DNA of 64,000 nt from an archaeon (lineage in GTDB: Archaea; Nanobdellota; Nanobdellia; Pacearchaeales; GW2011-AR1). This document shows positions 6,568-32,953 of this stretch, piece after piece (the stretch's first letter is position 1; every line of letters begins with the position of its first letter). Below the pieces are notes generated by a model. The model did not search any database, had not been told where the DNA came from, and saw only the letters and a list, made by a program, of their open reading frames with translations. The position numbers were made by a program, and so were the translations under genes. The stretch lies in assembly GCA_043821585.1 (NCBI GenBank), contig JBDRCQ010000003.1, positions 9,861-73,860 of the forward strand, in the 5' to 3' direction.

Positions 6568-7725
6568 ATGTTAAAAACAATGAACAGAACGTACTATGAA
6601 CTCCTGAGGTTTTACGCAAATTTAAAAGTTATAGTTCGGCTTATTTTTTATTTTCTAGAGTATCTCTCATGGGCAATTTTCAACATCCCCAAAACAAGAA
6701 AATATCCAAAAAAAATTAAAAAGGTTCTGGTTTACAACCAAGGACCTTTAGGAGATTTTTTTAGTTCATTGAAGGTGCTATTGACTGTTATCAAACAAAA
6801 CCCTAATATAGAATTTCATTTTTGCATCGTAGACGAGGTAAAAAAAAGTGTAAAAAGCCTTTTTAAAAAAAGAAATTTACAGCTCGTTAGCCAAAGCCAA
6901 ATAAAGAATAAATTTTATGACTTGGGTATTATTCTAACGCCAGACCAATTCACACGAAAGTTAAAAAATTTAGGTTTTACCTTGGGCAATGAGTACCACA
7001 GTATTCAGGGTTCATTGCAACAAATTTTCAAGACTCAACCCCTGAGTACAAAGATACCCCCCTGGTGGAGACATAAAATTAAGCAAGAAATTGAGATCTA
7101 CAAACAGGCAAAACTATTATCAAATGAAAATCTCACCTCCTTTAAGCCATTAAGGAACAAAAAAGTTCTTAGGTTCCTAAAATCAAAAAAGATTAAGGGG
7201 TTCATGATATTCCATCCCACGGGGAGAAACTTTTCCGAGATAATTAAATCTGGAAAAATTCCTGCCCTGTCCTGGTCGTTAGAAAGATTTGCAGAAATTG
7301 CCGATTACGTCTCAACAAAATACGATGTTGATGTAATTCTTACTGGAAGCAAGGACGAAAAATTCATAGGTCAAAAAATAATTTCCCTCACAAAAAATAA
7401 AAGAAATATCTTCAACTTAGCAGGTTTCTTTACCATAGGGGAATTAGCTTATCTAGCTAGTAGATCTGATTTAATATTATCAATAGACACGAGCATGGTC
7501 CATCTGGGAGAATTAGTCGACTCCAAGATAATCGCTCTATTCGGCCCAACTTTCGTTGAAGAGATAGGCGCCTATGGGGATACAGAAAAACAGATAAACC
7601 TGGGACATCCAGAAAAATGCATACGTGATAGAAGAAAGGGCCCGTCTCATGACAAGGAAAACAAGGGCATGAATTCAATCACAACAGAAGAAGTTAAAAA
7701 AGCAATAGACCAATTATTAAGATGA
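6568..7725 (+). CDS. Glycosyltransferase family 9 (heptosyltransferase-like)
   Basis: 385 aa. The C-terminal half carries DTSMVHLGELVDSKIIALFGPT, which matches the D-[ST]-G-x-x-H-[LI]-A ... LFGPT pattern of GT9 enzymes. The N-terminal half is divergent. Confidence 0.6.
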   Translation: MLKTMNRTYYELLRFYANLKVIVRLIFYFLEYLSWAIFNIPKTRKYPKKIKKVLVYNQGPLGDFFSSLKVLLTVIKQNPNIEFHFCIVDEVKKSVKSLFKKRNLQLVSQSQIKNKFYDLGIILTPDQFTRKLKNLGFTLGNEYHSIQGSLQQIFKTQPLSTKIPPWWRHKIKQEIEIYKQAKLLSNENLTSFKPLRNKKVLRFLKSKKIKGFMIFHPTGRNFSEIIKSGKIPALSWSLERFAEIADYVSTKYDVDVILTGSKDEKFIGQKIISLTKNKRNIFNLAGFFTIGELAYLASRSDLILSIDTSMVHLGELVDSKIIALFGPTFVEEIGAYGDTEKQINLGHPEKCIRDRRKGPSHDKENKGMNSITTEEVKKAIDQLLR

Positions 7726-8270: not shown

Positions 8271-9128
8271 TTATCTATAATTTTTTTTCAAATAGACTTT
8301 TCTGATTACGCCTGCGATAGTGCCAAAATACCTAGCGGCCATAAACAGAACCATCCAAGGAAGGAAGATACCGAAGTCTTTTAATGAAAAACTCTTTTTA
8401 ACCGCCAAAATCGGAACAACTATCGGAGAAACAATTACAAGAAGTAGCAACGCCAAATATCTCCAAAAAGGCATTCTAAAGATTTTATAATTTAGAGAGG
8501 CACCAATCCACCTGCTCTGCTTGTAAACATCTTTTAGCCTTTCTGGATTTTTATGGTAACAAGTAGTATTCTCCGCAAAAACAGGTTTTAACCCATGGTC
8601 CATCCAAAATGTTTGGTCATCCGCATAACCGTATTTTGGATTAAATCCTCCCAGTTCAATAAATCTTTTTTTAGTTATTGCACGAAATATTCTAGCGTCT
8701 TGACTCTTTTTGCCATCAACTCTTATTCTCCCCCAACATCTGCTCCAAACATTTTTGGTATTATCAGCTACTTCTAAATCATGGGTAGTGCCAAAGAGAC
8801 GTTTATTTTTTTTCCACGGAAAAACAAGATTTTTCAGGTAATCCTTATCAAAAGTCATGTCTGCATCAACAAAAATTAAAAGATCTCCTTTTGCCTCTTT
8901 CGCCCCCTTATTCCTAGAAAAACCCGGGCCCTTATGCTCCCCTTTAATCAGCTTAACACCTCGGTGCATTTTCACAATTTTTCTAGTGGCATCGGTAGAA
9001 CCATCATCAACAACCAACACTTCAAAATTCTTATAACTCTGTTTATTCAAGCTATTCAAACAGAGTCCTATTTCCCTCTCTTCATTATAAGTCGGAATAA
9101 CCACGCTCAGTTTTGGATTTTCTTTCAT
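8271..9128 (-). CDS. Glycosyltransferase family 2
   Basis: 285 aa with LSVVIPTYNEE, VLVVDDGSTDAT and FVDADM (DxD), plus C-terminal TM helices. Confidence 0.8.
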   Translation of the reverse strand: MKENPKLSVVIPTYNEEREIGLCLNSLNKQSYKNFEVLVVDDGSTDATRKIVKMHRGVKLIKGEHKGPGFSRNKGAKEAKGDLLIFVDADMTFDKDYLKNLVFPWKKNKRLFGTTHDLEVADNTKNVWSRCWGRIRVDGKKSQDARIFRAITKKRFIELGGFNPKYGYADDQTFWMDHGLKPVFAENTTCYHKNPERLKDVYKQSRWIGASLNYKIFRMPFWRYLALLLLVIVSPIVVPILAVKKSFSLKDFGIFLPWMVLFMAARYFGTIAGVIRKVYLKKNYR

Positions 9129-9272: not shown

Positions 9273-10166
9273 TCACAACCCCAATAATTTTTTTAGTTTA
9301 TCTTTTAGAAACATCATCAACTTTGATTTATAAGCCGCAGTCTTTAGGCTCTCCAGAGTTCTAGCCAAGATTCTAGAAGCAAGGGGAGATACTCGGTCTA
9401 CTTTTTTTAAGAATTTTAATACCAATCCCATTAAGGAGCCTTGCCGGACGTTGGATTTATAAGTGCATTCAATAGACCCTTGTTTTGTTAAAAAAGGGAT
9501 AGTCCAAAATACTCTAAGGTCGTTTTTCTTTTGGATATAGCTCATCTCCACATCCATTGCAACAGCAAACCCTTCCAAAAGCTTAGCAATCTTTTCAGCA
9601 GATCTAGGAGTCACCAGATAGGACCCAGTAGTATTGGATCTTTTTTCAGGGTGTTTATAAAGTGTAATTTTCCCCTTTTTGTCTCTTTTTACTTTTGGCT
9701 CTATCAAGAAAGAACCTTTATCACTATAACAAATATCCCAACTGATTCTACCAAGTTTTTCGACAGTCTCTTCTAGTTTTCCTGGAAAGTCGTCTGAAAG
9801 AATTACATCATCCTCGAGCACCATGGAAACTTTGTTGTCTTTATCCTTCGCAATCTTTTTAAAGATCCGGATATGGTGCAAAACCATAATCACATCAATC
9901 TTTCCAACCGATGGCATCTTTTCCTTCAACACTCTTGATCTTTCTATTAGGGCGCCCTCGCTTCCATTATGCAATGAAAGTTCTTTTTTTGTAAATCCAT
10001 CATCTGTAGACAAAACCCATTCGGCATATTTTCCCAAACCCAACTCGTTCAATCTATTCTCTAAATAAGCCCGCCTTTCTTTTAATTTGTCGTAGTGGAT
10101 AATATATATTTTTCCTAAATTTTTAATGTCCATCCTGTTTTGCATCCTGTAAAGCATATGCTTCAT
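9273..10166 (-). CDS. Glycosyltransferase family 25-like
   Basis: 297 aa with IYIIHYDKLKERRAYLENRL at the N-terminus and VLEDDVILSDDF. This pattern resembles GT25 LOS/LPS glycosyltransferases. The true start is probably an internal Met (MDIKN), reducing the overlap with the upstream gene. Confidence 0.5.
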   Translation of the reverse strand: MKHMLYRMQNRMDIKNLGKIYIIHYDKLKERRAYLENRLNELGLGKYAEWVLSTDDGFTKKELSLHNGSEGALIERSRVLKEKMPSVGKIDVIMVLHHIRIFKKIAKDKDNKVSMVLEDDVILSDDFPGKLEETVEKLGRISWDICYSDKGSFLIEPKVKRDKKGKITLYKHPEKRSNTTGSYLVTPRSAEKIAKLLEGFAVAMDVEMSYIQKKNDLRVFWTIPFLTKQGSIECTYKSNVRQGSLMGLVLKFLKKVDRVSPLASRILARTLESLKTAAYKSKLMMFLKDKLKKLLGL

Positions 10167-11457
10167 CTTGATACCTTAATAATTCCGCATTGCTTACTCC
10201 TGATAAATTCACGCCCGTACTATCATAAAAAGTAGTTCTTTCCATCTGACCAAGATCATTGGGATCCAATAATCCTCTCTCAACAGCCAATCTATAAACG
10301 TCAGTTCCGGGAACAGGCGTCAATAACATAAATTTCATTTGTTCAGTATCCAGCTCTCTTGCAAAATCTAACGTCTGCCTTATAGTTTCATGAGTATCGC
10401 CCGGCAATCCAAGTATATAACTTGTAAGCGTCGGGATCCCAGCATCCCTTAAGAGCCTAACACCTTGTCTAATCTGATTTTTAGTTTCTCCTTTTCTAAT
10501 TTGTTTAAGCATAGCCTCATTTCCAGTTTCAACACCCACTGCAGCATAGACACATCCCGACTCTTTCAAGGCGACGGCAAGTGCGGGAGTCACTGAATCT
10601 GCCCTGACTTGCACGTCATATTTCAACCCTAAGCCCGCATCTCGAATTCTATTGCAAAGCTCTAAGGCTCTCCGCTGATTTATCGCAAAATGGTCATCAT
10701 AGAAGGTTAAATTTTTAATCCCCCACGTTTCAGAAAGATCGGTGAACTCTCCCATAATTGAATCTACGCCTCGGTATCTTATCTTACGTTTCCATGTTAC
10801 TCCAGATGCACAAAATACACAATCACGCGGGCATCCCCTTGTTGTGAAAACCCCCACGTGAGGTCCTTCAAAATGTCCAGGGTCCAAATATTCGCCCAAT
10901 GACAGTAAGTCCCATGCTGGCCGAGGTAATTCATCCAAATCTGTCACAAATGGCCTCCGCCCATTTACAACTAACTGGCCGTCTCGAGTTGTGATCAAAT
11001 TTTCCAAGTCCACCGGATCCCTGCCAGCAACAAGATGGTCCAACAATTCTAAAAATGCTGGCTCTCCCTCACCAGCAATTCCATAATCAATAGAGTCATG
11101 TCCGCAATCTTGAGGTCTCCCGGTAATATGCGGCCCGCCCACAATAGTTGTTACAGTTTCATCTTGTTTTTTCAGTTCATCGCAAATTCTTAGAACCGTT
11201 GGAAACCTCGGAGTTAACGTGGTAAACCCGATATACTCTGCGCCTCTAGACAATATGCTTTCAGCAATTTGGTCAGGCTCTCTAATATCTTCTAATTCAA
11301 AATCAAGAATTTCAGGCCCATACCTTCCAGATTCTCGTATAAACGAACCGAGCATGGCAAGATTTGTTGGAGTTCTTAATACGCCTTGTTTTTTCCACCC
11401 CCCAGATTTAAATACATTGGGTGCGCGTACCAGTAAAACCTTGTGTCTCTGCATCAT
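10123..11457 (-). CDS. B12-binding (class B) radical SAM enzyme
   Basis: 444 aa. The N-terminal half is a B12-binding-like Rossmann domain (IGFTTLTP ... IVGGPHIT). It is followed by CPRDCVFC (C-x3-C-x2-C), the radical SAM cluster motif. Confidence 0.8.
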   Translation of the reverse strand: MMQRHKVLLVRAPNVFKSGGWKKQGVLRTPTNLAMLGSFIRESGRYGPEILDFELEDIREPDQIAESILSRGAEYIGFTTLTPRFPTVLRICDELKKQDETVTTIVGGPHITGRPQDCGHDSIDYGIAGEGEPAFLELLDHLVAGRDPVDLENLITTRDGQLVVNGRRPFVTDLDELPRPAWDLLSLGEYLDPGHFEGPHVGVFTTRGCPRDCVFCASGVTWKRKIRYRGVDSIMGEFTDLSETWGIKNLTFYDDHFAINQRRALELCNRIRDAGLGLKYDVQVRADSVTPALAVALKESGCVYAAVGVETGNEAMLKQIRKGETKNQIRQGVRLLRDAGIPTLTSYILGLPGDTHETIRQTLDFARELDTEQMKFMLLTPVPGTDVYRLAVERGLLDPNDLGQMERTTFYDSTGVNLSGVSNAELLRYQDEAYALQDAKQDGH

Positions 11458-11487: not shown

Positions 11488-12147
11488 TTATTGTTTTTCT
11501 AAAACGCCAATCATTTCGTTATTGGGGAAGAAGGTCATTTCAAATGAGTTCATTGAGCAAAATTTCCATAACGATGAAATGTTCCTAAAACTTTTAATCG
11601 CCATAAGCCTCCAAATGCCAGGGATGCTTCTAAAGTTTCTAATTTCAACAATTTTAAATCCTATTAATTTAGATAAAGCTGAGAGGCTATTTTTAGTCAA
11701 TGGGCTCCGATGGGTAGGGTCATTATAAAACACTTTATAACCCTTCTCCCAGTTTGGGGTTTGTAAGAAGATCTTCCCCCCCTTTTTTAAACATCTAAAA
11801 GCTTCTTTAAGAAAATTTTCCGGAGACTCGAGATGCTCAATAAGAGATTTCGCAAATATAAAATCCAAGGAGTTATCTCTGAGCAAGAAATTTTTGTCCA
11901 AGTTCATTTTATAGCACTTTATTCCCTCCTTTTTCAACCTATTAAAAAAAGAAGGATCGGTATCACAAACAGACACATTAAAACCCAATTTCTTAAAAGC
12001 AAGAGCGTTGTTTCCATTACCCGAACCAAAATCAGCTAATTTGCCCACCCTCTTAAAATATTTCAAAAAAACCCATCTAGAGAATAAATATTCATATAAC
12101 TGATTCTCTTCATTCAATTGAAAATTCAATTCATTATAACCTTTCAT
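11488..12147 (-). CDS. Class I SAM-dependent methyltransferase
   Basis: 219 aa with LADFGSGNGNNA motif I, a VCDTD acidic loop, and SLIEHLESP. Confidence 0.7.
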   Translation of the reverse strand: MKGYNELNFQLNEENQLYEYLFSRWVFLKYFKRVGKLADFGSGNGNNALAFKKLGFNVSVCDTDPSFFNRLKKEGIKCYKMNLDKNFLLRDNSLDFIFAKSLIEHLESPENFLKEAFRCLKKGGKIFLQTPNWEKGYKVFYNDPTHRSPLTKNSLSALSKLIGFKIVEIRNFRSIPGIWRLMAIKSFRNISSLWKFCSMNSFEMTFFPNNEMIGVLEKQ

Positions 12148-12193: not shown

Positions 12194-14227
12194 CTAAGAA
12201 GTCATTTTCGGCTTCCAAACTCGAGTTCCCCCAAATTCAAAATTAAAGTTTAACACTTCTCCCCCAGATTCTTGCAACGCTTTAGTTAACTCATTCCTCT
12301 TAGTTGGCTTGCTAAAGAACAAAAGATACCCTCCGCCGCCTGAGCCAAGAAGCCTCCCCCCATAGGCTCCATTTTCCAACCCGATCCTGTAAAGATCATC
12401 TATTTTAGGGTTCGTGATAGACTTACTCAAGCGCCTCTTGTTTATCCAAGATTCATGCAAGAGTCGGCCAATAGATCCAATCTCATTTTTAAGTAAGGAG
12501 TCCTTGATCTTCACAGCGATTATCTTATGTTCATTTTGAATTTTAGTAATAATCTCTTCATTCTCTTGAAAAAACTTTTCTTGGTGTTGGTGTAGATCTC
12601 CAGAAAAGTGGGATTGTCCGACATAACAGAGCATCAAATGCGAAACAAGCTCATGAACGATGTCTTCCTTAAGGCGGAGGGGGTGAATCAATGTCCGCGA
12701 TTCCTCAAATTCCATCAGGCTAAAACCTCCAGTGACCGCGGCATATTGGTCTTGCCAGCCCCCCTTAATGCCCAGCTCTTCACGCTCCGCATTATAAGCA
12801 ATTTCAGCAATTTTGTAATCATCATAATTTAACTCCTGCAATGTGCTCAAAAGAGAAATAACCAGAACAGCAAGGCTAGCAGACGAACCAAGGCCTCTTC
12901 CAGGGGGAATATCGTTACGTAAATACAAATCAAAACCGAACGGAGGCTTCATAATTTTAATAACTGCTTTGACTAAGTCAAACTTTCCGTCATATTCAAT
13001 TGATTTCCACGAGTCTAACAGAACCTCGCGCCCCAAATCTGAATTAATATGAATCTTAGAATCTGCCCGTTTAGTAATGCTGGCATGACAGTACTTATCA
13101 ATTGTAGCGTTTATTACAACGCCTCCGTGGTTATTGAAGAAACTTGGCAAGTCAGTCCCTCCCCCTGCAAAACTTATTCTCAGCGGGGCCCTCCCTCGTA
13201 GCGTCGGAAATGGTTTCTCTGGCAAAACCTCGCTTTTAAACTCAATGCTGACGATTTTTCCCTGTTCATCGAGGATGGGCAAGCTGTTAACACCAGACTC
13301 CAACAAGTGATAAATAGATGCTTCGCTATCGGTGGTCTTCCCAGTTATGGGGTTCTGTGTCATAGCTTTATGGACCGGGTCGCTTGGATTACCTCCATGT
13401 AGAAGAAACCGCTTCAAGATACCTTCTGTAACAACACCCAACAGCTTCTTTTGTTCGCCTGCAATAAGCACAAGGTTAATGCCTGTTCGGTCAAGCTTAT
13501 ACAATGCGTCACGAACAAGACGATCTTCTCGCAAGATCAACATTTCAAGAACGTCTTTCTTAAACTGTTCAAGAGACTCAGGCCGGCCTATATCTCTAAA
13601 GTACCCTTCGAAAGGAAATCCCCACAAAGTGCCTTCATTGGCTAACTGTGGAAAGACTTCACCTTCAATAGAAGTCTTTTTGCCAGGCTCAATATAGTCA
13701 AAAATCTTTGGCTCAAAAACGTAAACTCCAGAATTAATTAATGAATTAGAAACAACCTTTTTTTCAGAAAAGCCCATAATTCTATTTTCATTTAAGATAA
13801 CGTTGCCGTAATGAGAAGGATCTGAAGAAGTTGTTAAAGCTAAAGTAAAATTGCTCCTTTTTGATTTATGAAAATCAACAAGTTTCTTCAAGTCTAACTG
13901 CGAATATGAATCTCCATTTAAAACAAGAAATGTATTGTCTACATAGCGCTCTGCGTTTTTAATTGCACCAGCGGTTCCAAGCGGAGTTTCCTCTTCAGAA
14001 TAGGTTATGTTAACATTAAAATTACTTCCGTCCCTAAAATAAGATTTAATCTGGTTTGCCTTATTATGAACGGCAAGAATTACTTCAGTTATCCCTTGAT
14101 CTTTTAGAAAACGTATCTGATGTTCTAAAAAGGGCTTACCTGCGATGGAAACCATGGGTTTTGGAACATCGCCCGATACACTTTTTAGTCTAGTCCCAAA
14201 CCCGCCAGCTAAGATTATGGCCCTCAT
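12194..14227 (-). CDS. Tri-domain fusion: sugar-1-phosphate nucleotidylyltransferase (HddC-like) + CBS pair + GHMP sugar kinase (HddA-like)
   Basis: 677 aa. The N-terminus has MRAIILAGGFGTRL (nucleotidyltransferase G-G-x-G-T-R-L). The middle holds two CBS-like repeats (about aa 235-345). The C-terminus has RAPLRISFAGGGTDL and PPGRGLGSSASLAV, GHMP kinase motifs I and II of the HddA/fucokinase branch. Confidence 0.75.
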   Translation of the reverse strand: MRAIILAGGFGTRLKSVSGDVPKPMVSIAGKPFLEHQIRFLKDQGITEVILAVHNKANQIKSYFRDGSNFNVNITYSEEETPLGTAGAIKNAERYVDNTFLVLNGDSYSQLDLKKLVDFHKSKRSNFTLALTTSSDPSHYGNVILNENRIMGFSEKKVVSNSLINSGVYVFEPKIFDYIEPGKKTSIEGEVFPQLANEGTLWGFPFEGYFRDIGRPESLEQFKKDVLEMLILREDRLVRDALYKLDRTGINLVLIAGEQKKLLGVVTEGILKRFLLHGGNPSDPVHKAMTQNPITGKTTDSEASIYHLLESGVNSLPILDEQGKIVSIEFKSEVLPEKPFPTLRGRAPLRISFAGGGTDLPSFFNNHGGVVINATIDKYCHASITKRADSKIHINSDLGREVLLDSWKSIEYDGKFDLVKAVIKIMKPPFGFDLYLRNDIPPGRGLGSSASLAVLVISLLSTLQELNYDDYKIAEIAYNAEREELGIKGGWQDQYAAVTGGFSLMEFEESRTLIHPLRLKEDIVHELVSHLMLCYVGQSHFSGDLHQHQEKFFQENEEIITKIQNEHKIIAVKIKDSLLKNEIGSIGRLLHESWINKRRLSKSITNPKIDDLYRIGLENGAYGGRLLGSGGGGYLLFFSKPTKRNELTKALQESGGEVLNFNFEFGGTRVWKPKMTS

Positions 14228-14757
14228 TTTATCAAAGATACTGCCTCCTTAAGACTTTTAGCCACAAAATCGGCCGCCTCTAAATTCTCATTCCCAATCA
14301 AAATAGTTTTACACTTCCTTTTTCTTCCCATTTCAATGTCGCAGACCGAATCCCCTATAACCCAACTTTCTTCCAAATCAATGTTCAATTCTTTACTTGC
14401 CTTGTCCAACATCCCCGTAAGGGGTTTTCGACAATCGCACTCTCCAGCATCATGGGGACAAAAGTAAATCTTATCTATCCTTCCACCAGCCTCCAAGATT
14501 TCATTCAACATTTTGCCATGTATCTCTTCAAGATCCTCAAGATTCATAAGCCCCTTAGATATGCCTCTCTGGTTAGTTATAATTACAATTTTATAATCTC
14601 TCGCTCCCAACTTGCCAATGCTCTCCTTAACCCCTGGCAAAAACTCAAAATCGCGCCAATTAGTAATATATACGCCTTCAGGAGCCTTTTTATTTATGAC
14701 TCCGTCCCTGTCAAGGAAAACAGCCTTTCTTTTTGATAAACTCAATGTTCCACACAC
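14224..14757 (-). CDS. gmhB: D-glycero-D-manno-heptose 1,7-bisphosphate phosphatase (HAD-IIIA, GmhB-like)
   Basis: 177 aa with FLDRDGVIN (DxDG), ITNQ, the Zn-finger-like insert CPHDAGECDCRKP, and GDS. The start overlaps the upstream fusion gene's stop by 4 nt. Confidence 0.8.
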   Translation of the reverse strand: MCGTLSLSKRKAVFLDRDGVINKKAPEGVYITNWRDFEFLPGVKESIGKLGARDYKIVIITNQRGISKGLMNLEDLEEIHGKMLNEILEAGGRIDKIYFCPHDAGECDCRKPLTGMLDKASKELNIDLEESWVIGDSVCDIEMGRKRKCKTILIGNENLEAADFVAKSLKEAVSLIK

Positions 14758-14879: not shown

Positions 14880-15824
14880 CTAATCGTTGCCATATGGGTT
14901 ATTTGCCAATAAAACCTTATATCCTCTAATCAGCTCTTTAATCCCCTCATCCAGTCCGACTGTTGCCTTGAACCCTTTCTTTAAAATCTTTTCATTTGAG
15001 ACTATGTAATTTCTTTTATCAGGGTCTGAAGCAAATTCATCATAATATATCTTTATTCCAGGAAGATGCTCTTTAATTTTATGGGCCAGTTCATCTTTAG
15101 AGAGGTTCGCTTCGTCAAGGCCAAGATTATAAGGCTCATTTTTCATAGATTCGAAATTCTCTATGACATGTAAGAACCCTTTTGCAACATCACCTATGTG
15201 AATATAATTCCTTTTGAAATGTCTTTCAAACAGAATCAGACAACCGTCTCTAAACGCTTTGAAGACAAAATCATTAACCAAGAGGTCCGTCCTCATTCTA
15301 GGTGAAACTCCAAATACTGTAGCCAGTCTAAGCGTAACAGCTGGTTTATCAGATTGCAACAAAAGTTTCTCCGCATTAACTTTAGTCTCTCCATAAAGGG
15401 AGATCGGTTCAAGTGGCGTTTCTTCGGTACAGAACATGTCGCCAGTTTTAGTGCCATAACCGCTATTTGTTGTGGGGTAAACAACTATCTGATCGTGATT
15501 TCTTAGTCTGTCGAGCAAGGCAACTGCCTCATAATTTGTTGATTTTGCATCGAATGGTTTCTTCTTACAAATAGGCATTCCAACCAAACATGCAAGGGGG
15601 ATAATTACGTCCTTTCCAGAAATAGCTTTTTTAATTAATTCTTCATCTCTTGCATCTCCGAATATGAATTCATAATTTGGATCGTTAGAAAAGAGAAATG
15701 GTGTTTGTTGACCGTACATGAGATTGTCAACACAAGTCACCTTGTAACCACTATCAAGTAAATGCCTTGTCATAACGCTTCCGATATATCCTGCCCCCCC
15801 AGTTATTAAAACATTCTTTTCCAT
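14880..15824 (-). CDS. NAD-dependent sugar-nucleotide epimerase/dehydratase (extended SDR)
   Basis: 314 aa with ITGGAGYIGS (a GxxGxxG variant) and YGETK (YxxxK). Confidence 0.75.
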   Translation of the reverse strand: MEKNVLITGGAGYIGSVMTRHLLDSGYKVTCVDNLMYGQQTPFLFSNDPNYEFIFGDARDEELIKKAISGKDVIIPLACLVGMPICKKKPFDAKSTNYEAVALLDRLRNHDQIVVYPTTNSGYGTKTGDMFCTEETPLEPISLYGETKVNAEKLLLQSDKPAVTLRLATVFGVSPRMRTDLLVNDFVFKAFRDGCLILFERHFKRNYIHIGDVAKGFLHVIENFESMKNEPYNLGLDEANLSKDELAHKIKEHLPGIKIYYDEFASDPDKRNYIVSNEKILKKGFKATVGLDEGIKELIRGYKVLLANNPYGND

Positions 15825-15825
15825 T

Positions 15826-16794
15826 TCAATTATTCCTAGAGTACCAATCGATAGTTTTCTTTAATCCTTCCTCTAAAGTATGCATTTTGTTCTTTTCAGT
15901 CCACCCAATTTCATTCTTCGCCTTCGTAATATCCAAAACTTTATTCTTAACCCCTACAAATTTATTTGTATTGTAAACAATCTCTCCGGAATACCCGCTA
16001 ACCTTTTTTATCGTTTCAGCAAGGTCTTTTATGGATATCTCCTTTCCAGCCCCAATGTTTATAATTTGACCACAGTAACTCGAAGGGTCTCCCTCAAAAT
16101 GTTGAGCAGCCATCAGCAACCCATCTATCTGATCCTCGATAAATATTAACTCTCTTGTCTGGGTTCCACCCCCCCAAACTTCAACACTCGGAAGAGACTC
16201 TTTTTTAGCATCACAAAATTTCGCAACCAACGCTCCAACCACATGGGCAGTTTTCAAATCAAAATCATCATAGGGCCCATAAAGTGTGGCAAACATAGGC
16301 ATTATCCCCCTTAAATTTTTATGCTGATCTGCATAAGCTCTTAGTCCAATACCAAGTAACCTTTTTGTCGCCCCGTAGGCATAAACGCTGTCATGTAAAT
16401 CCCCTTGATCAATGTCCTCCTCTTTTAATCGAGGTATTTTCCCGGGGTAGCAACAGCTACTTCCAACAGCGATCATCTTAGCATCTGGTTGAAACTTTCT
16501 CCAGGCCTCAAGAGAGTTAATTTGGATCAATCCATTAACATAAAATTGTTCTGCAGTGTGGTGCATCGGCCAATCAGCAGCATGTTGCAATGCAGCCATA
16601 TGAATAACAAAATCATATTTACCAGTCTGAAATGCCTTTTCTGCATCATCCTTCTTTGTCAAATCATATTTGCTGCTTCCAAAAGTAAAATAAGTCGCAC
16701 CGAGAGCATCTAGTTTTTTTGTAAGATTTTTACCAACAAAACTAGTCCCCCCAGTTATTAAAACATTTTTCCCCTTCCAAAAGTTATCATCCAT
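15826..16794 (-). CDS. GDP-L-fucose synthase-like (Fcl/WcaG family) GDP-4-keto-6-deoxy-sugar epimerase/reductase
   Basis: 322 aa with ITGGTSFVGKNL, GSSCCYP (compare GSSCIYP in E. coli Fcl), YAYGATK, and VWGGGTQTRELIFIED (compare VWGSGTPMREFLHVDD). Confidence 0.7.
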   Translation of the reverse strand: MDDNFWKGKNVLITGGTSFVGKNLTKKLDALGATYFTFGSSKYDLTKKDDAEKAFQTGKYDFVIHMAALQHAADWPMHHTAEQFYVNGLIQINSLEAWRKFQPDAKMIAVGSSCCYPGKIPRLKEEDIDQGDLHDSVYAYGATKRLLGIGLRAYADQHKNLRGIMPMFATLYGPYDDFDLKTAHVVGALVAKFCDAKKESLPSVEVWGGGTQTRELIFIEDQIDGLLMAAQHFEGDPSSYCGQIINIGAGKEISIKDLAETIKKVSGYSGEIVYNTNKFVGVKNKVLDITKAKNEIGWTEKNKMHTLEEGLKKTIDWYSRNN

Positions 16795-18793: not shown

Positions 18794-19912
18794 ATGTGTG
18801 ACCTTATGGCTCGCAGAAAGGAAAAACTAAAGATCCTCGAGTTAACTAATTTCTCGGCAGGCGCATGCGGAGTTTGGCAAAGAGTCAAACAAGAATCGGA
18901 GATGCTAGCAAGGAAAGGTCACACCGTTCAAGTCTTTTCTTCAAATTTTGTTAAGGGTACCAGAGACGTCGCTTCAGCGGAAGAAAAAATTGGTCTAGTG
19001 GGAGTCAAAAGATTTCCAGCAAAAAGACTGGGCGGAGAAAGTTTTATGAAATGGGATTTTAAACCAGAGGCGATCAAATTATGCCCCGATGTAATCATAG
19101 CTCATTCATATCGCCACACCCACACCACCACTGCACTGGCGATAAAAAAAAGAATAGGGTGCAAGGTTTTCTTAGTCACTCACGCACCGTTTGGTAACGA
19201 ATCAAGAGGGTTTCTTGGCAAGTTGTCCACCCGACTCTATGACTTCTTCATTGGTCAAAAAAAATTAAAAGAGTTTGATAAAGTTGTAACAATAACAAAG
19301 TGGGAAGAACAAGTCTTACACAAACTCGGAGTAAAAAAAGAAAAGATCGAGTATATTCCTAATGGCATCCCAAGAGAATTCTTCACGCAAAAAAGATCAA
19401 AAGAAGAACACAAGGTTCTCTTCCTGGGGAGGATCGCGCCGATTAAAGATTTAGAAACACTCATTAGGGCCATCAATCTGTTGAAAGACGTAAAATTGGA
19501 AATTGTGGGGCCTGCAGAAAATGAATGCCTAAAAAAATTAAAAAAGATAGCAGGTCAAAGAATAGTCTTTTCTCGCCCGGTGTATAATCTTAAAGGAAAA
19601 ATAAGGAAAGTAGACTCCGCAAAAGTTTTCGTTCTACCCTCAATAAGGGAATCTATGCCCCAATCACTGATCGAGGCAATGGCTCGTGAAAAAGTGGTAA
19701 TCGCAAGCAAAAACTTAGGAACTCAAGAGTTGATCCAGAATGGAAAAAATGGTTTTCTTTTCAAGACTGGCGATGAAAAACAACTCGCAGAAAAGATTTC
19801 TTTTTCGTTGAAAGAGGATCTGAACAGTGTCAAGATACAAGCACGCAAAAGCGTAGAAAAATTTTCCTGGGAAAAGATTGTAACAAAACTAGAAAAATTA
19901 ATTAACAGTTAA
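18794..19912 (+). CDS. Glycosyltransferase family 4 (GT-B, group 1)
   Basis: 372 aa. The C-terminal E-x7-E region is ESMPQSLIEAMAREKVVIAS, and there is a GKNGFLF motif. The start may be the internal Met at 18806. Confidence 0.8.
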   Translation: MCDLMARRKEKLKILELTNFSAGACGVWQRVKQESEMLARKGHTVQVFSSNFVKGTRDVASAEEKIGLVGVKRFPAKRLGGESFMKWDFKPEAIKLCPDVIIAHSYRHTHTTTALAIKKRIGCKVFLVTHAPFGNESRGFLGKLSTRLYDFFIGQKKLKEFDKVVTITKWEEQVLHKLGVKKEKIEYIPNGIPREFFTQKRSKEEHKVLFLGRIAPIKDLETLIRAINLLKDVKLEIVGPAENECLKKLKKIAGQRIVFSRPVYNLKGKIRKVDSAKVFVLPSIRESMPQSLIEAMAREKVVIASKNLGTQELIQNGKNGFLFKTGDEKQLAEKISFSLKEDLNSVKIQARKSVEKFSWEKIVTKLEKLINS

Positions 19913-20590
19913 ATACTCAGTGGGATCTTCAATACCGGCCCAATAGAATCCCTGTTGTCTCAGCCTACAGGCAAGACACGTGCCACAATGTTTTTCCTTT
20001 CCAACGTAACAACTAAACGTCTTTTTAAAATCAACACCTAACTTTCTTGCTAGACCCACAATATCCTCTTTATCTTTCTCAATCAATGGCGCAATTATCT
20101 TAAACTTGCCCTTTGTCGAGTTTTCAGAGATTTTGTTCATTGCCTCCACAAAAATTGGAGTAGTGTCAGGGTAATGCTCGCCACCCTCATTCTTGAAGCC
20201 AACAAAGATATCGCTCGTTTCTCCCTCCTTGATTGTTAAGGACTCCGCAAAAGAGAGTGCATTTGAGAGAAATACCAAATTCCTAGAAGGCACATACCAT
20301 TTATTACTCTCTAAAACCGTGTCTTTCAAGTCTTCCTTTTTAACTTTTGTAGGTTCTTCATCAGAATTTAGAAGAGATGTGGAAATCTGCCCAAGATAGC
20401 TAAGATCCATCTCAAAAAATCGTGCCCCCAAGTCTTCTGCGCATTTCATTGCAAATTTTCTTTCAGGGCCCTGATTTCTCTGCCCGTAATTAAAAAACAA
20501 AATGATGAGTTTATTATACTTACTTCTAGCTAAAAATGCAGTCGTAACGCTGTCTAATCCACCAGAGCACAGAACAATCGCACATTTCAT
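19898..20590 (-). CDS. queC: 7-cyano-7-deazaguanine synthase (QueC)
   Basis: 230 aa with the PP-loop VLCSGGLDS, then YGQRN, VPSRN, and the C-terminal zinc motif SCY ... CGTCLACRLR. Confidence 0.8.
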   Translation of the reverse strand: MKCAIVLCSGGLDSVTTAFLARSKYNKLIILFFNYGQRNQGPERKFAMKCAEDLGARFFEMDLSYLGQISTSLLNSDEEPTKVKKEDLKDTVLESNKWYVPSRNLVFLSNALSFAESLTIKEGETSDIFVGFKNEGGEHYPDTTPIFVEAMNKISENSTKGKFKIIAPLIEKDKEDIVGLARKLGVDFKKTFSCYVGKEKHCGTCLACRLRQQGFYWAGIEDPTEYLTVN

Positions 20591-20835: not shown

Positions 20836-21741
20836 ATGATCCATATAATCATAACCTCTTACAACGAGCCGAAGGCAACTCTCAGAGCAGTAAAATATTT
20901 TCTAAATCAAAAAATAAAAGACAAGTTCAAGATAATAGTGGTAGATCCATTTCCAGAAGTGGAAAGGTTCCTAAAAAAAGAAATAAAAAACAAGAATGTC
21001 GAATTTTTCCTTGATCCCGGAGAGGGAAAGGGCTACGCGTTAAATCTTCTCTTTCAGGAATACGGAACTGGTGATGAAAATCACTTTTACATCTTGACGG
21101 ACGGAGATGTATATGTCTCGGAAAATGCTGTAGAAGAAATCCTTAAACCCTTTAATGAAAAAAAGGTAGGTTGCGTAACCGGAAGGCCGGTCCAAATAGA
21201 TTCCACTAAATCCAAGTACGAGTACTGGGCAGAAGTCGCATTCAAACGGATTCACCAAGTAAGAAAAAGGATGTCCAAGAACAAGGAGTTTTTCGAATGC
21301 TCTGGTTACTTATTTGCAATTCGCGACGGAGTAATCTTCGACTTTTCAACAAACACTTCTGAAGACAGCATAATTCCATATCTCTTCTGGAAAAAGGGAT
21401 ACAGAATAGTCTACTCCGACAAGGCAGAGGTTTATGTAAAAAACCCAAACAACTGGACAGACTGGTTTAACCAAAAGGTCAGAAATATAAAGGCTCACGA
21501 GAACCTGAACAAAATAGCGCCAGATATGCCCAGAACAAAATCTCTCTTCAATGAAATAAAGGAAGGTGCATTCTTTGCGATACTCCAGCCAAGAAGCCTA
21601 AAAGAATTTTTCTGGATTATCCAATTTTATTTTGCTAGGCTTCATATTTATCTATCAGCGTTCAAGGAATTGAAGACAAAAAAGGCCTATAAAGACGGTT
21701 GGAGAGAGACAGAGATAGAATCAACTAAGCCTCTTGATTAA
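20836..21741 (+). CDS. Glycosyltransferase family 2
   Basis: 301 aa with IIITSYNEP, IIVVDP, and TDGDVY (DxD-like). Confidence 0.65.
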   Translation: MIHIIITSYNEPKATLRAVKYFLNQKIKDKFKIIVVDPFPEVERFLKKEIKNKNVEFFLDPGEGKGYALNLLFQEYGTGDENHFYILTDGDVYVSENAVEEILKPFNEKKVGCVTGRPVQIDSTKSKYEYWAEVAFKRIHQVRKRMSKNKEFFECSGYLFAIRDGVIFDFSTNTSEDSIIPYLFWKKGYRIVYSDKAEVYVKNPNNWTDWFNQKVRNIKAHENLNKIAPDMPRTKSLFNEIKEGAFFAILQPRSLKEFFWIIQFYFARLHIYLSAFKELKTKKAYKDGWRETEIESTKPLD

Positions 21742-22150
21742 ACTGTTTAGCAAATTCCACAAGCTTAGACCCCAATTCTTCTTTGGAATTAACAATTTCC
21801 ATACTTCCGATCAGAATAGCGCTGAGATATTCTAAAGCAGATTCTACTGGTTCATCAGTTTTTATCCCGATTGCAGGGATTCCTCTAGCGTAAGCATAAC
21901 CAAGTTCCCAGGCAGTTCCAGCTCCGACATGTAGCCCATCAAGAACAGCAACAACTAAGTTAACATCCCTAAATCCTTCTTTTATATCCCCTTCAAATAT
22001 CTTGTCCACTTCCTCAATGCTTCCAGCCAACCCAACATCTCTGTGCGGTAAAAACGTCTCGAACCCTGCTGACTTACAAACGGAATCAATCTCTTCTAGG
22101 AACTCCCTTTCGATTTCGTTTCTAATCTTTCCAGCTAGGTATATCTTCAT
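21725..22150 (-). CDS. Nucleoside 2-deoxyribosyltransferase-family protein
   Basis: 141 aa with MKIYLAGKI at the N-terminus and DGLHVGAGTAWELGYAYARGIPAIGI. This matches the family pattern D-x-G-T-x-x-E-x-G-x-A. Confidence 0.6.
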   Translation of the reverse strand: MKIYLAGKIRNEIEREFLEEIDSVCKSAGFETFLPHRDVGLAGSIEEVDKIFEGDIKEGFRDVNLVVAVLDGLHVGAGTAWELGYAYARGIPAIGIKTDEPVESALEYLSAILIGSMEIVNSKEELGSKLVEFAKQFNQEA

Positions 22151-22221: not shown

Positions 22222-23220
22222 ATGAAAATAGTGCTAATCAAACTAGGCGCATTGGGTGACGTAATACGGACTCTTCCTTTAGCTGTTGCCCTAAAAAAGA
22301 GGTTTCCAAAGTCTGAATTAACCTGGATCACAAAACCAAACGCCTTGGAGATAATAAAAACAGACAAAAACATTGACAAGGTTCTAATGTCAAAACCGCA
22401 AGAAGAATTCGATGTATTATATAACTTTGATATAGACAAGGTTGCAACAACAATGGCCTCAGAAATAAAGGCTAAAGAAAAATTCGGATTCTATTCGGAT
22501 AATGGTTACGCCTCTGCATTCAATCTTGGAGCAGAATATTATCTCAATACTTTGTTTGACGATGAGCTAAAAAAATCAAACAAAAAAACATACCAGGAAA
22601 TGATGTTTGAAGTTGCAGAGATCCCCTACGAGAAAAAAAGATATTACATAGATCTAACTCCCGAGGAAGCATCTCTCGGAGAAATTTTCTTAAAACAAAA
22701 TAATCTGGTTGGAAAAAAGATTATAGGGATTCACATAGGTTCTTCACCAAGATGGCCCTCAAAGGCCTGGCACGAAAGTAGGATAAATGAATTCATAAAA
22801 AAAATAAAAGAACAAGGCAATGAGGTAATTCTCTTCGCTGGACCAGACGAAATTGAAAAAAGAGACAAAATCTTAGCGGCCCTAAAATCAGAAGGAATCG
22901 AAGTTCCAACAAACAATCCCCACAATTCAACAAGGGAATTTGCAGCCCTAGTTAACATTTGCAAGGCGATTGTTTGTTCTGACAGTTTTGCTCTTCACCT
23001 CTCTATCGGATTAGAAAAACCAACAGTCGGCCTATTCTTTTGTACTTCTCCAGAGGAGGTAGAACCTTACGACATTCTGACAAAGTTGGTTTCTCCAAAG
23101 TTAAAAGAATTCTTCCCTGAAAAAATGGACCAATACGATGAGGGTCTGGTAAAGAGCATAGACGTTTCAGAGGTTTTAGAAAGAATCAATCAGATTATCC
23201 CACAACAAACACTGAAATGA
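22222..23220 (+). CDS. Glycosyltransferase family 9 (heptosyltransferase-like)
   Basis: 332 aa. MKIVLIKLGALGDVIRTLPLAVALKKRFP matches the GT9 N-terminal LGD motif. The C-terminal half has SDSFALHLSIGL. Confidence 0.7.
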   Translation: MKIVLIKLGALGDVIRTLPLAVALKKRFPKSELTWITKPNALEIIKTDKNIDKVLMSKPQEEFDVLYNFDIDKVATTMASEIKAKEKFGFYSDNGYASAFNLGAEYYLNTLFDDELKKSNKKTYQEMMFEVAEIPYEKKRYYIDLTPEEASLGEIFLKQNNLVGKKIIGIHIGSSPRWPSKAWHESRINEFIKKIKEQGNEVILFAGPDEIEKRDKILAALKSEGIEVPTNNPHNSTREFAALVNICKAIVCSDSFALHLSIGLEKPTVGLFFCTSPEEVEPYDILTKLVSPKLKEFFPEKMDQYDEGLVKSIDVSEVLERINQIIPQQTLK

Positions 23221-23255: not shown

Positions 23256-24902
23256 ATGGATCCGGTTGAAGAAAGAAAACAAAAGATAATCCTCTGGTTA
23301 AAAGACCCTCTAAACCTAATACTCCTTCTTGTCATAATCTTCGGGATAGGTTTTAGGCTTTATTACTTCTCGATAACCACTAGTCAGCCGCTTTGGTGGG
23401 ATGAAGCAGACTACATGGCATATGCAAAAACCTTAGCAGGTTACCCAACCGATTGGAAGGTAACATCTCAACATAATTCGCTATTTCCATTTGCAGCAGG
23501 CGCACTTTTCAAAATTGGGCTATCCGACATAAGTATAAAATTCATCTTAGAGATCATACCCTCCATCGCTCTAATCTTTTTAACATACCATATAGTATTT
23601 CTGATGTACAAAAACAAAAGTCTTGCAATTATCTCAACCATTTTAATGTGTGTATTCTGGGAGAATATTTTTTACACGATGAGGTTCCACTTAGAAGCTC
23701 CAGCCTTACTGTTTGGTTTTCTTTCAATTTATGTTTTCTGGAAGGGTTACGAAAGAAAGGAAAAATTTTTCGGGTTAAATCCCAAATGGGCAATCCCGAT
23801 AACAGTAATTCTAGTTATAATAACTTACATGATCAGGAGAGGGTATTTTCTCTTTGGACTTTTCTTTTTAGTTTATATGCTACTGACAAAAGATTTTAGG
23901 AAATTAATCAAGGACAAATACAATTGGTTTGCCTTAATCATTGCATTCGCCTTGTTGTACATATCTGAAAAATATATCTTTGCTTCAGGTATAGATACTG
24001 TTGCAAGCACATATTATAACCCTGGTCCGATCACATTGCTTGCTTTTCGTGTCTTTTGGGCATTCTACGGGAGCGTTTCTACTCAATTTAGTCCACTATT
24101 GTATGTATTTTTCATCGGAGTTTTTGTCTTACTAGTAAACATTGTTTTAAGCTTTGGATATTGGAAGAAGGACACTTCCACAAAAGTAAGAAGCGACCTT
24201 TTCCTATTCTTGACAATAGCCGTAACCATGGCTTATTTTACATTCTATCAAAAGAGAATAACAGACTTTGGTGAACCAAGATGGTACTACCCTATGTTGC
24301 TTGGCACTTTTGTCGCAATCTCCAGAGCAACTGTCTCAATCGGTGACTACCTTAAAAAATATTACAAACCCTTGGGAATCATATTCATAGTGCTCTTATT
24401 AGGATATGGTTGTTACGATCAAGTAACTCACGCCGATTTTATAATAAAAAATAAAATCGGCTCCTATCAAAGCGTAAAAGACGCAGGGCTATTTTTGAAA
24501 GATATATCTCAAGAAGAAGATGTAATCTCAACAAGGGCCGAAACTCAGACTGCATATTACTCAGAAAGGAGAACCGTTCATCCGCTAGGCATTCTAGATG
24601 ATTACCCAATAGGCTCTGAGAATGCCACGAAGGTTCTGCAAAAAATAGCCGACAATCCAAATATAAACTATTTCTTAGTTCTATTTTCGGAACCAGGAAA
24701 TCCTGATTGGATGGGGAGAATCAGCTACAATGCCCAGGGCCAAGCAGTTTCTATAGAGGTTCCTTTCATGGACACAAGGATAGATGTCTCAACGGGAACT
24801 CAAGATATCAAACAAACTAAGACATTTGAAGATGTGGGCATTTCCCTGAACCTAGTAACAATCAAAGGAGATGTTTTTATTTACGAAGTGATAAGGCAAT
24901 AA
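23256..24902 (+). CDS. GT-C fold membrane glycosyltransferase (PMT_2 / ArnT-like, GT39/GT83)
   Basis: 548 aa with a multi-TM N-terminal block. An acidic first loop (LWWDEADYM) follows TM1. The C-terminal domain is soluble. Confidence 0.6.
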   Translation: MDPVEERKQKIILWLKDPLNLILLLVIIFGIGFRLYYFSITTSQPLWWDEADYMAYAKTLAGYPTDWKVTSQHNSLFPFAAGALFKIGLSDISIKFILEIIPSIALIFLTYHIVFLMYKNKSLAIISTILMCVFWENIFYTMRFHLEAPALLFGFLSIYVFWKGYERKEKFFGLNPKWAIPITVILVIITYMIRRGYFLFGLFFLVYMLLTKDFRKLIKDKYNWFALIIAFALLYISEKYIFASGIDTVASTYYNPGPITLLAFRVFWAFYGSVSTQFSPLLYVFFIGVFVLLVNIVLSFGYWKKDTSTKVRSDLFLFLTIAVTMAYFTFYQKRITDFGEPRWYYPMLLGTFVAISRATVSIGDYLKKYYKPLGIIFIVLLLGYGCYDQVTHADFIIKNKIGSYQSVKDAGLFLKDISQEEDVISTRAETQTAYYSERRTVHPLGILDDYPIGSENATKVLQKIADNPNINYFLVLFSEPGNPDWMGRISYNAQGQAVSIEVPFMDTRIDVSTGTQDIKQTKTFEDVGISLNLVTIKGDVFIYEVIRQ

Positions 24903-24941: not shown

Positions 24942-26069
24942 TTAGTCCCTAAATCTCTCAGATTTCTTAGGCAAAAATACTGAGGGATCAAATCTCTGAG
25001 GGGCCCCCTTCACCAAATTAAGGTCATAATCCATCATTTCCTTAACAAGATCGCTAAACTTATAGTCCTGAGACCATCCTAACTCTTTCTTGGCTTTGTT
25101 AGCATCACCCACCAGTGCCTCAACCTCAGTGGGCCTAAAATAATACGGGTCTACTTCAACATAAACCTTGCCATTTTGGGGATCATAACCGACCTCGTTA
25201 ACCCCTTCGCCCCTCCAAGCAATGTCTATCCCAACATGCTTAAATGCAATCTCAACGAACTCCCTCACAGAATGATTTGCCCCTGAAGCAATAACGTAAT
25301 CGTCTGGTTTCTCCGCCTGCAGAATAAGCCACATTGCCTTAGCGGAGTCCTTCGCATGACTCCAATCCCTCTTTGCATTCAAATTTCCGAGATATATCTT
25401 CTCAGACAACCCTGCATTAATGTCCGCAACGCCTTTAGTTATTTTTCTCGTCACAAAATTCTCACCGCGCCTAGGCGATTCCGTATTGAAAACAATTCCA
25501 TTAGAACAAAACATATTGTAGGCTTCCCTGTAATGCTTAATGATCCAATAACCGTAAAGTTTAGCAACGCCATACGGGCTTCTTGGATGAAACGGAGTAT
25601 TTTCATTCAGCAAGGCATTTCCCAAAACCCCTCCATAAAGCTCAGAAGTCGAAGCCTGGTAAACCCTCACTGGCTTTTTCAGTCTTCTAGCAGCTTCCAA
25701 TATCCTCAAAACGCCCAAGGCATTTGTGTTTGAGGTATGTTCGGGTGTATGAAATGATATCCAAACATGGGACTGGGCAGCAAGATTATAAATTTCATCA
25801 GGTTGTATATCAGAAACTATCCTTTCAATAATCCCAGAATCCTGTAAGTCTCCATAAAACAAGTTCAAACCCTTTATATGGTCTATCCTCTGTCTAGCGC
25901 CCTCTATCCTTGAGGTTCTTCTTATTATCCCATACACTTCATATCCTTTATCGACTAAAAGCTCGGCGAGATAACTCCCAATCTGGCCGGTAATCCCAGT
26001 TATCAGAGCTCTTTTCTTCCATGAGCTCGAATTAGCTAAATGATCTGCTTGATTCACTTTCACCCCCAT
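24942..26069 (-). CDS. gmd: GDP-mannose 4,6-dehydratase
   Basis: 375 aa with ITGITGQIGSYLAELL, YQASTSELYG (catalytic T-x-E), SPYGVAKLY (YxxxK), NHESPRRG, and NLNAKRDWSHAKD. Collinear with E. coli Gmd. Confidence 0.9.
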   Translation of the reverse strand: MGVKVNQADHLANSSSWKKRALITGITGQIGSYLAELLVDKGYEVYGIIRRTSRIEGARQRIDHIKGLNLFYGDLQDSGIIERIVSDIQPDEIYNLAAQSHVWISFHTPEHTSNTNALGVLRILEAARRLKKPVRVYQASTSELYGGVLGNALLNENTPFHPRSPYGVAKLYGYWIIKHYREAYNMFCSNGIVFNTESPRRGENFVTRKITKGVADINAGLSEKIYLGNLNAKRDWSHAKDSAKAMWLILQAEKPDDYVIASGANHSVREFVEIAFKHVGIDIAWRGEGVNEVGYDPQNGKVYVEVDPYYFRPTEVEALVGDANKAKKELGWSQDYKFSDLVKEMMDYDLNLVKGAPQRFDPSVFLPKKSERFRD

Positions 26070-32948: not shown

Positions 32949-32953
32949 TTAAT

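Follow-up and report, generated by a model that had tools for sequence, protein, structure and literature searches.

Two non-consecutive steps of heptose activation, viz. the kinase step and the nucleotidyl transfer, are carried by a single chain in HldE, which joins a PfkB kinase to a cytidylyltransferase-like domain, works on the beta-anomer with ATP; the GmhB step falls to another protein. For the route to GDP-activated alpha-heptose, the closest described enzymes are the GHMP-fold kinases HddA and WcbL and the nucleotidyltransferase HddC, which in Yersinia is a single-domain NTP_transferase protein of about 225 amino acids (aa). An N-terminal guanylyltransferase followed by a C-terminal GHMP kinase is also found in FKP, the L-fucokinase/GDP-fucose pyrophosphorylase of Bacteroides, a salvage enzyme that takes a free sugar and requires no phosphatase. 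In the present work, we describe a stretch of 64,000 nucleotides (the window, below) from contig JBDRCQ010000003.1 of a small archaeon of the DPANN type (Pacearchaeales), in which one open reading frame (ORF) combines an HddC-like nucleotidyltransferase, a CBS pair and an HddA-type GHMP kinase. From its sequence and setting, we consider it likely that this fusion is a bifunctional GDP-heptose enzyme which would carry out the kinase step and the nucleotidyl transfer in one chain. The pathway and all of its parts are already known, and it is the fused architecture and the archaeal setting that are new. Our literature search turned up no description of a fusion of HddC with HddA, of a CBS-HddA protein, or of GDP-heptose or heptose in DPANN archaea; the archaeal heptose work of Tang et al., as far as it is described in PMC11461863, concerns an unrelated beta-heptose route of the HldE type.

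The fusion, its domains and the three genes immediately upstream of it, which include two short-chain dehydrogenase/reductase (SDR) genes, are as follows.

12194-14227, minus strand: HddC-CBS-HddA fusion ORF, 677 aa, ATG start
13544-14227, minus strand: fusion domain 1 (aa 1-228), short-form HddC-like sugar-1-phosphate nucleotidyltransferase without a C-terminal beta-helix
13202-13543, minus strand: fusion domain 2 (aa 229-342), CBS pair (Bateman module) between the catalytic domains
12194-13201, minus strand: fusion domain 3 (aa 343-677 and the stop codon), GHMP kinase of the HddA/WcbL heptokinase group
14224-14757, minus strand: GmhB-like HAD-IIIA phosphatase, predicted heptose-1,7-bisphosphate 7-phosphatase, 177 aa, upstream of the fusion
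14880-15824, minus strand: SDR1, Cj1427-like GDP-heptose C4-dehydrogenase (predicted), adjoining the phosphatase upstream
15826-16794, minus strand: SDR2, GDP-L-fucose-synthase-like, predicted 3,5-epimerase/4-reductase acting on the 4-keto-heptose

A preliminary description of this DNA, made from the letters alone, had read the 677-aa ORF as a nucleotidyltransferase, a CBS pair and a GHMP kinase, and the Pfam domain calls agree with it: NTP_transferase (PF00483) matches aa 3-227 (E 2.6e-43), GHMP_kinases_N (PF00288) aa 418-501 (E 1e-19) and GHMP_kinases_C (PF08544) aa 576-654 (E 2.1e-9). The motifs quoted in that description, viz. GGFGTRL, RAPLRISFAGGGTDL and GRGLGSSAS, are all present in the ORF. 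A model of the whole fusion, obtained with AlphaFold2 using 46 homologues as input, has a pLDDT of 89.3 and a pTM of 0.83. The same full-length architecture is shared by more than 120 database clusters with 53-66% identity to the fusion, whose source names include Woesearchaeota, Pacearchaeota and Nanoarchaeota, and an assembly chimera or a frameshift artefact is therefore ruled out. Since clustering at 50% reduces them to few representatives, the archaeal fusions make up one coherent family. The fused form is common among these archaea, and in automated annotation its members already carry the name hddA (K07031).

By sequence comparison, the kinase domain groups with the heptokinases HddA and WcbL and not with fucokinase. 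Among the NCBIfam models it scores 270 bits on HddA (NF049969), as against 92 on FKP (NF009948) and 78 on mevalonate kinase, and among sequences of known structure it scores 237 bits against 4n3o (a putative heptose 7-phosphate kinase from Campylobacter jejuni), 223 against 3k85 and 211-215 against WcbL from Burkholderia pseudomallei, as against 69-73 for FKP. In a Foldseek search with the fusion model, WcbL and 4n3o were the top matches (TM 0.83-0.89 for the HddA/WcbL structures; for WcbL TM 0.89, root-mean-square deviation (rmsd) 2.5, 35% identity). An ATP loop of the PxxxGLGSSA type (GLGSSAS) lies at aa 445-451. Mutation of R13, D22, S118-S120, Q162 or D163 abolishes the activity of WcbL (PMC4691232); R13, D22, S118/S119, Q162 and D163 align with R350, D359, S448/S449, Q492 and D493 of the fusion, and S120 is replaced by A450. 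Across the 46 homologues four of these positions are invariant and S448 is 98% conserved. The earlier assignment of this domain to the HddA type thus stands, the fucokinase placement that would have spoken against it not being seen, and heptose 7-phosphate is its predicted substrate. Membership of the FKP family was considered and rejected, the kinase reaching 92 bits on NF009948 where the cutoff is 721 and the fusion model giving a TMt of 0.32 and an rmsd of 28.8 with FKP 9iit. In contrast to HddA and WcbL themselves, the kinase here is the C-terminal part of a 677-aa archaeal protein, behind a CBS pair and a nucleotidyltransferase.

The N-terminal domain has the short NTP_transferase fold with a GGxGTRL motif and without the left-handed beta-helix, the CBS segment beginning at about aa 229. 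It superposes on HddC of Yersinia pseudotuberculosis (6jq8, 225 aa) with a TM of 0.88 and 38% identity in Foldseek, and it is predicted to use GTP and a heptose 1-phosphate. The same pathway context surrounds both proteins, but the domain of the fusion is joined to a CBS pair and a kinase, and its scores are not separable from those of the mannose-1-phosphate guanylyltransferases, a point to which we return below.

Between the two catalytic domains, Pfam detects CBS (PF00571) at about aa 230-275 with 27.6 bits (cutoff 24), no one stretch being above threshold alone, and the AlphaFold2 model contains two units of the beta-alpha-beta-beta-alpha type, at about aa 231-276 and 284-330 (pLDDT about 86-95), which together form a CBS pair. 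Most likely the pair serves in allosteric control or oligomerisation and was inherited from ancestors of the CBS-HddA type. CBS pairs of other enzymes commonly bind adenosyl ligands, the module holds the same position in thousands of bacterial CBS-HddA proteins as well as in the archaeal fusions, and its two units fold confidently in the model; all of this argues against its being a mere structural linker or dimerisation element devoid of ligand sensing. We nevertheless regard that simpler role as a possibility of some weight, if not the favoured one, in view of the low conservation of the segment (mean column conservation over the 46 homologues of 0.58, the lowest in the fusion, as against 0.71-0.72 in the catalytic domains), its weak detection by Pfam and the existence of shorter HddC-HddA fusions (about 570 aa) in which a CBS segment is apparently missing. 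A more elaborate proposal, which we put forward as a speculation with little probability behind it, is that the pair gates the fusion by sensing an adenylate, S-adenosylmethionine (SAM) or GDP-heptose and so coordinates two steps that are not consecutive, perhaps as part of a complex that includes GmhB; where gmhA is unlinked, the heptose would come from a host precursor or through a non-orthologous isomerase, and surface heptose would be tied to the symbiotic state.

The gene upstream of the fusion was described earlier as a GmhB-type HAD phosphatase with a CPHxxxxCxCRKP insert, and this holds: the protein has the DxD residues D16 and D18, T61 and K111, and the insert reads C100-P-H102-DAGE-C107-D-C109-RKP. 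It lies well above the cutoffs of the general HAD-IIIA models (TIGR01662, 113.6 against 44.6; TIGR01656, 136.5 against 84.15). A histidinol phosphatase of the HisB type, the other assignment considered, was rejected on its lower scores (NCBIfam, 86 bits for HisB-N below 157 for GmhB; PDB, 80 bits for HisB and 106 for the best match, GmhB 4pnh), and no histidine-biosynthesis genes were found near the phosphatase. The junction of the two genes had been reported the wrong way around, with the stop of the fusion over the start of the phosphatase. On the reverse complement it reads TTG ATA AAA TGA / ATG AGG GCC, so that the stop of the phosphatase overlaps the start of the fusion within an ATGA. 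As judged from this overlap, the GmhB-like gene and the fusion are translationally coupled.

Further upstream, SDR1 scores 356 bits against the structure 6vo6 (53.4% identity over 307 aa), the next structure reaching 96 bits; the titles of 6vo6 and 6vo8 name Cj1427 of C. jejuni, crystallised with GDP-D-glycero-D-manno-heptose. SDR2 scores 172 bits on the NCBIfam model Fcl and 124 bits against E. coli GMER, whose catalytic triad and epimerase dyad it retains (S112, C114, Y140, K144 and H184, corresponding to S107, C109, Y136, K140 and H179). The reductase-only enzymes MlghC and DdahC do not have the Cys/His epimerisation dyad (PMC7949155). Because SDR2 keeps this dyad, it is reasonable to regard it as a putative combined 3,5-epimerase/4-reductase, one enzyme that may both epimerise and reduce. 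The arrangement follows the logic of the C. jejuni capsule enzymes, in which oxidation at C4 by Cj1427 is followed by epimerisation and reduction, the reductases being Cj1428, MlghC and DdahC; here too a Cj1427-like protein precedes an enzyme of the GDP-L-fucose-synthase family. Unlike in C. jejuni, no cupin epimerase is found beside the SDR genes in the window.

Taken in order, these proteins suggest the following route. The kinase domain would convert heptose 7-phosphate to the alpha-1,7-bisphosphate. This would lose its 7-phosphate through the co-translated GmhB-like phosphatase, and the resulting heptose 1-phosphate would go to the nucleotidyltransferase domain. SDR1 would then oxidise the GDP-heptose at C4, and SDR2 would epimerise and reduce the 4-keto intermediate to give GDP-D-glycero-L-hexo-heptose as the predicted product. 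The sugar would be transferred by glycosyltransferases of the surrounding island, possibly after methylation. With both the kinase and the transferase in one chain, steps 2 and 4 of the pathway would be placed in one polypeptide, as in HldE.

We compared the locus with 16 other tri-domain loci (given L numbers where they need to be told apart), among which two pairs are duplicates; the loci L006-L009 are the only four fusion loci from a scan of genome contigs with a single protein, the other matches being mostly nucleotidyltransferase-only. A close homologue of SDR1 (at least 340 bits) is found near the fusion in 10 of the 16, at no more than about 2.3 kb in nine of these, and a GmhB-like gene in six. 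GmhA is encoded near the fusion in one of them, L005, where it scores 211.6 on TIGR00441, above the equivalog cutoff of 209.45. In two additional loci, L163 and L164, a SIS (GmhA-like) gene adjoins the fusion or lies one gene off, the order in L163 being SDR1-GmhB-fusion-GmhA. These are the two that were checked of at least nine fusion clusters that appear to share contigs with GmhA clusters, as judged by an identical length of the longest contig. In four further archaeal fusion loci no SIS gene was found within 10 kb. The presence of gmhA beside the fusion in L005, L163 and L164 and its absence from other loci indicate that the linkage of gmhA is real but variable, and the databases contain GmhA proteins under the names of Woesearchaeota and Nanoarchaeota. 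In C. jejuni, gmhB sits outside the capsule cluster. An extra stand-alone NTP_transferase gene stands beside the fusion in L006 and L159. The latter locus, from a Pacearchaeota contig, also contains an HldE-like gene (21608-22055; CTP_transf_like and PfkB, 512 aa) about 9.5 kb from the fusion, and some fusion-bearing archaea may in consequence hold both an ADP-type and a GDP-type heptose route.

Several genes at a greater distance within the window bear on the pathway and on its rivals.

6568-7725, plus strand: GT9 (heptosyltransferase-family), Pfam Glyco_transf_9 60 bits, weak matches to lipopolysaccharide heptosyltransferase models
22222-23220, plus strand: second GT9 (heptosyltransferase-family), Pfam Glyco_transf_9 64 bits, with a syntenic GT9 in L161
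24942-26069: true GMD, 477 bits (cutoff 415)
26032-27108: LegC/Per-like aminotransferase, adjoining the next gene, with a NUDIX gene nearby
27105-29360, minus strand: fusion of a sugar C-methyltransferase (Methyltransf_13/23/14) and a GMD-like domain, 751 aa, TIGR01472 386 bits, just under 415
41092-41541: RpiB (Pfam)
41538-42167: Rpe (Pfam)
47994-49829, minus strand: transketolase (Pfam)

A genome with neither gmhA nor heptose-related glycosyltransferases would, by the preliminary description, have spoken against its reading; two GT9 genes are present in the window. The transketolase, RpiB and Rpe genes, 27-36 kb off the fusion, could provide sedoheptulose 7-phosphate. The fusion of a C-methyltransferase with a GMD-like domain also occurs, as a protein of 768 aa, in a Woesearchaeota-type contig (L001, 1-266).

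A number of observations weigh against the assignment of a GDP-heptose pathway. No SIS or GmhA gene was found in the 64-kb window by family scans (Pfam or NCBIfam on 62 of 65 ORFs selected with a length of 90 aa or more; the remaining three, of 91-96 aa, are too short for a GmhA of about 190 aa), by tblastn of the window with archaeal GmhA, or with a profile built from 29 GmhA-like ORFs and run on all window ORFs of at least 60 aa; the earlier remark that the window holds no GmhA is thereby upheld by three search routes. Among about 12 independent archaeal loci, sampled regardless of gmhA, one has gmhA within 10 kb of the fusion. The kinase domain, with 270 bits, does not reach the HddA equivalog cutoff (NF049969) of 600 bits. 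As its match spans positions 3-337 of the 338 in the model, the shortfall reflects divergence from the sequences of the model and not a partial match, and we name the kinase HddA-type, not a curated equivalog, because its score is well under 600. The phosphatase likewise falls short of the GmhB models (157.4 against a cutoff of 178 for PRK08942, and 112.5 against 149.6 for TIGR00213). For the nucleotidyltransferase domain, the NCBIfam scores are 183 bits for HddC (equivalog NF049965, cutoff 300) and 189 bits for mannose-1-phosphate guanylyltransferase, each below its cutoff, and the corresponding scores against PDB sequences are 142.9 and 143.5 bits. Since such scores cannot tell the two apart, we base the HddC assignment on the fusion and its gene context. 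This domain is, moreover, the sole NTP_transferase domain found in a window that has two GMD-type genes. To our knowledge, the GT9 enzymes characterised so far use ADP-heptose and not GDP-heptose.

Three other explanations draw on these same observations. The preliminary description saw its main alternative in a salvage enzyme resembling FKP, which would phosphorylate a free hexose such as mannose at C1 and deliver a GDP-hexose to the GMD and aminotransferase genes with no heptose involved. The order of the domains, with the pyrophosphorylase N-terminal and the GHMP kinase C-terminal, is indeed that of FKP; the transferase scores of 189 as against 183 bits, the true GMD and the second GMD-like fusion in a window with no other NTP_transferase domain, and the missing gmhA would all be in keeping with it, as would the binding of mannose in the sugar site of WcbL crystals (PMC4691232). 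The kinase, however, scores 237 bits with a heptokinase and only about 70 with fucokinase, and full-length FKP, which has a different linker, is not superposable on the fusion (rmsd 28.8, TM 0.32). A salvage kinase needs no 7-phosphatase, but a GmhB-like gene is coupled to the fusion here and adjacent to it in several orthologous loci, a Cj1427-like heptose dehydrogenase is its most consistently linked neighbour, and a GmhA gene lies near it in L005, L163 and L164. On these grounds, salvage of this kind is very improbable.

It is conceivable, if on balance unlikely, that the fusion serves two purposes. The kinase/GmhB arm would then yield heptose 1-phosphate, and a promiscuous transferase would also turn mannose 1-phosphate into GDP-mannose, so that a GDP-mannose branch (GMD, aminotransferase and C-methyltransferase-GMD) and a heptose branch share one pyrophosphorylase. 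The equal performance of the transferase on models and structures of the ManC and HddC types is what such an enzyme would lead one to expect, as is the lack of a second NTP_transferase domain in the 64 kb, whose glycan genes include GDP-mannose-type dehydratases. A manC gene could, however, sit in another part of the genome, GDP-heptose could be the substrate of the GMD homologues, as it is for the C4,6-dehydratase of C. jejuni (PMC10680097), and the extra stand-alone NTP_transferase beside the fusion in L006 and L159 suggests a division of labour. A further suggestion, which appears rather doubtful to us, is that the lineage has no GmhA and obtains heptose 7-phosphate from its host or by means of a non-orthologous isomerase such as RpiB. 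DPANN archaea are described, in the part of the literature consulted, as generally being symbionts with reduced genomes; gmhA was not found in the window or in most of the sampled archaeal loci; and the window has genes for RpiB, Rpe and transketolase. Against this, gmhA need not be linked, as shown by the gmhB of C. jejuni, GmhA proteins of Woesearchaeota and Nanoarchaeota exist with at least nine appearing to share contigs with fusions, and the 64 kb that are visible are only a part of the genome. The GDP-heptose pathway proposed in the preliminary description remains the reading that we favour, and it is supported by the placement of the kinase, the higher scores of the phosphatase on GmhB than on HisB-N, the two GT9 genes, the gmhA genes beside orthologous fusions and the Cj1427-like SDR1.

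The fusion resembles HldE in that the same two non-consecutive steps would be placed in one chain with the GmhB step kept separate, but it differs in its folds, in its domain order, which is the opposite one, in its CBS pair, and in the anomer and nucleotide that it is predicted to use. Homology with HldE was rejected, the folds being unrelated and neither of the HldE domains (PF00294 and PF01467) giving a Pfam match in the fusion ORF; the likeness is functional, and the fusion is analogous and not homologous to HldE, as had been proposed. Its genetic linkage is that of HddA and WcbL, viz. with gmhB, hddC and, in some loci, gmhA.

A closer parallel to its domain arrangement is provided by bacteria. 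Our metagenome scan (loci L086-L158) also gave 67 proteins with two domains, CBS and GHMP, and a length of about 455 aa, in which a CBS pair is directly N-terminal to an HddA kinase with 34-41% identity to the fusion. A separate hddC-like nucleotidyltransferase gene typically abuts them upstream, and the order gmhB-hddC-[CBS-hddA]-gmhA is recurrent. The CBS-HddA family has 3948 matches at E <= 1e-20 and is common in Pseudomonas, Halopseudomonas, Stutzerimonas and Betaproteobacteria and also present in Azoarcus; in the databases these proteins are named HddA or 'CBS domain-containing protein'. In a neighbour-joining tree of kinase domains, which is rough (midpoint-rooted, with no FKP outgroup and with PDB sequences retyped from alignments) and is to be read for coarse grouping only, the archaeal domains form one clade, sister to a group with the characterised HddAs, and the bacterial CBS-HddA kinases fall in a different clade outside both. 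The domain order of the archaeal fusion is that of hddC followed by CBS-hddA, as though two genes had been joined. As the archaeal kinases are nearer to the single-domain HddAs in the tree, we infer an origin by joining of hddC and CBS-hddA from gene order alone. Fusion of HddC with HddA has happened more than once. Separate tri-domain fusions are found in bacteria as proteins of 700-729 aa (L095, 687-2876, and a protein from a Rhodospirillaceae metagenome-assembled genome), and there are others, about 570 aa long, that seem to join HddC and HddA with no CBS pair.

Downstream of the fusion, four genes that probably serve in tailoring and transfer steps lie on the same strand.

11488-12147, minus strand: SAM methyltransferase, co-directional with the fusion (Pfam)
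10123-11457, minus strand: B12-binding radical SAM protein (Pfam)
9273-10166, minus strand: GT25 (Pfam)
8271-9128, minus strand: GT2 (Pfam)

In the archaeal loci L001, L005, L159 and L161-L164, too, the fusion has a B12-binding radical SAM gene next to it. Such genes are often accompanied by a DegT aminotransferase, a CTP_transf_like protein (about 165 aa), a Glyco_trans_1_2 protein (about 550 aa) and a small E1_dh/Transket_pyr pair. This recurrent set looks like a tailoring module, possibly for C-methylation or for a two-carbon branch.

The window as a whole is a large glycan island, with several glycosyltransferases of the GT2 and GT4 (Glycos_transf_1) families, one GT25, the two GT9, flippases, Alg13/14-like and AglH-like proteins, methyltransferases, radical SAM proteins, the true GMD, a DegT aminotransferase and the C-methyltransferase-GMD fusion. 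The archaeal origin given in the preliminary description holds. Among the products of the window are a Thr-tRNA editing domain specific to archaea and the oligosaccharyltransferase AglB/STT3, the latter in an N-glycosylation block that includes a GT2.

31239-39978: N-glycosylation block
37282-39978: AglB/STT3
36266-37282: GT4 AglH-like phosphotransferase
35064-36332: flippase
32017-32948: split Alg13/Alg14-like genes

N-glycans are a possible destination of the predicted heptose. Amid the glycosyltransferase genes lie a QueC gene and a gene of the nucleoside 2-deoxyribosyltransferase family (19898-20590 and 21725-22150, both on the minus strand), a region with which L161 2381-5074 is syntenic (GT2-GT9-Nuc_deoxyrib_tr-GT2-QueC). 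Four ORFs of 299-548 aa gave no Pfam match, viz. 23256-24902 (plus), 47030-47929 (minus), 54700-55866 (plus) and 62486-63565 (plus); the one of 548 aa, situated amid glycan genes, comes close in length to the Glyco_trans_1_2 proteins (about 550 aa) of related loci. An Rfam scan of positions 1-64000 gave no family at its gathering score and detected no tRNA, rRNA or other known RNA gene.

The route to alpha-GDP-heptose has so far been documented in bacteria, and the family described here leads to the prediction that many archaea of the Woesearchaeota and Pacearchaeota type make GDP-activated, probably C4-remodelled heptoses for surface or N-linked glycans. If so, the fusion would be a second, independent joining of the heptose kinase and nucleotidyl-transfer steps, convergent with HldE. 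It also brings to attention the large CBS-HddA family of Pseudomonas and its relatives. The fusion and GmhB would together offer a compact two-protein route to the enzymatic preparation of GDP-heptose, and for uncultured DPANN cells heptose would be a glycan marker open to testing.

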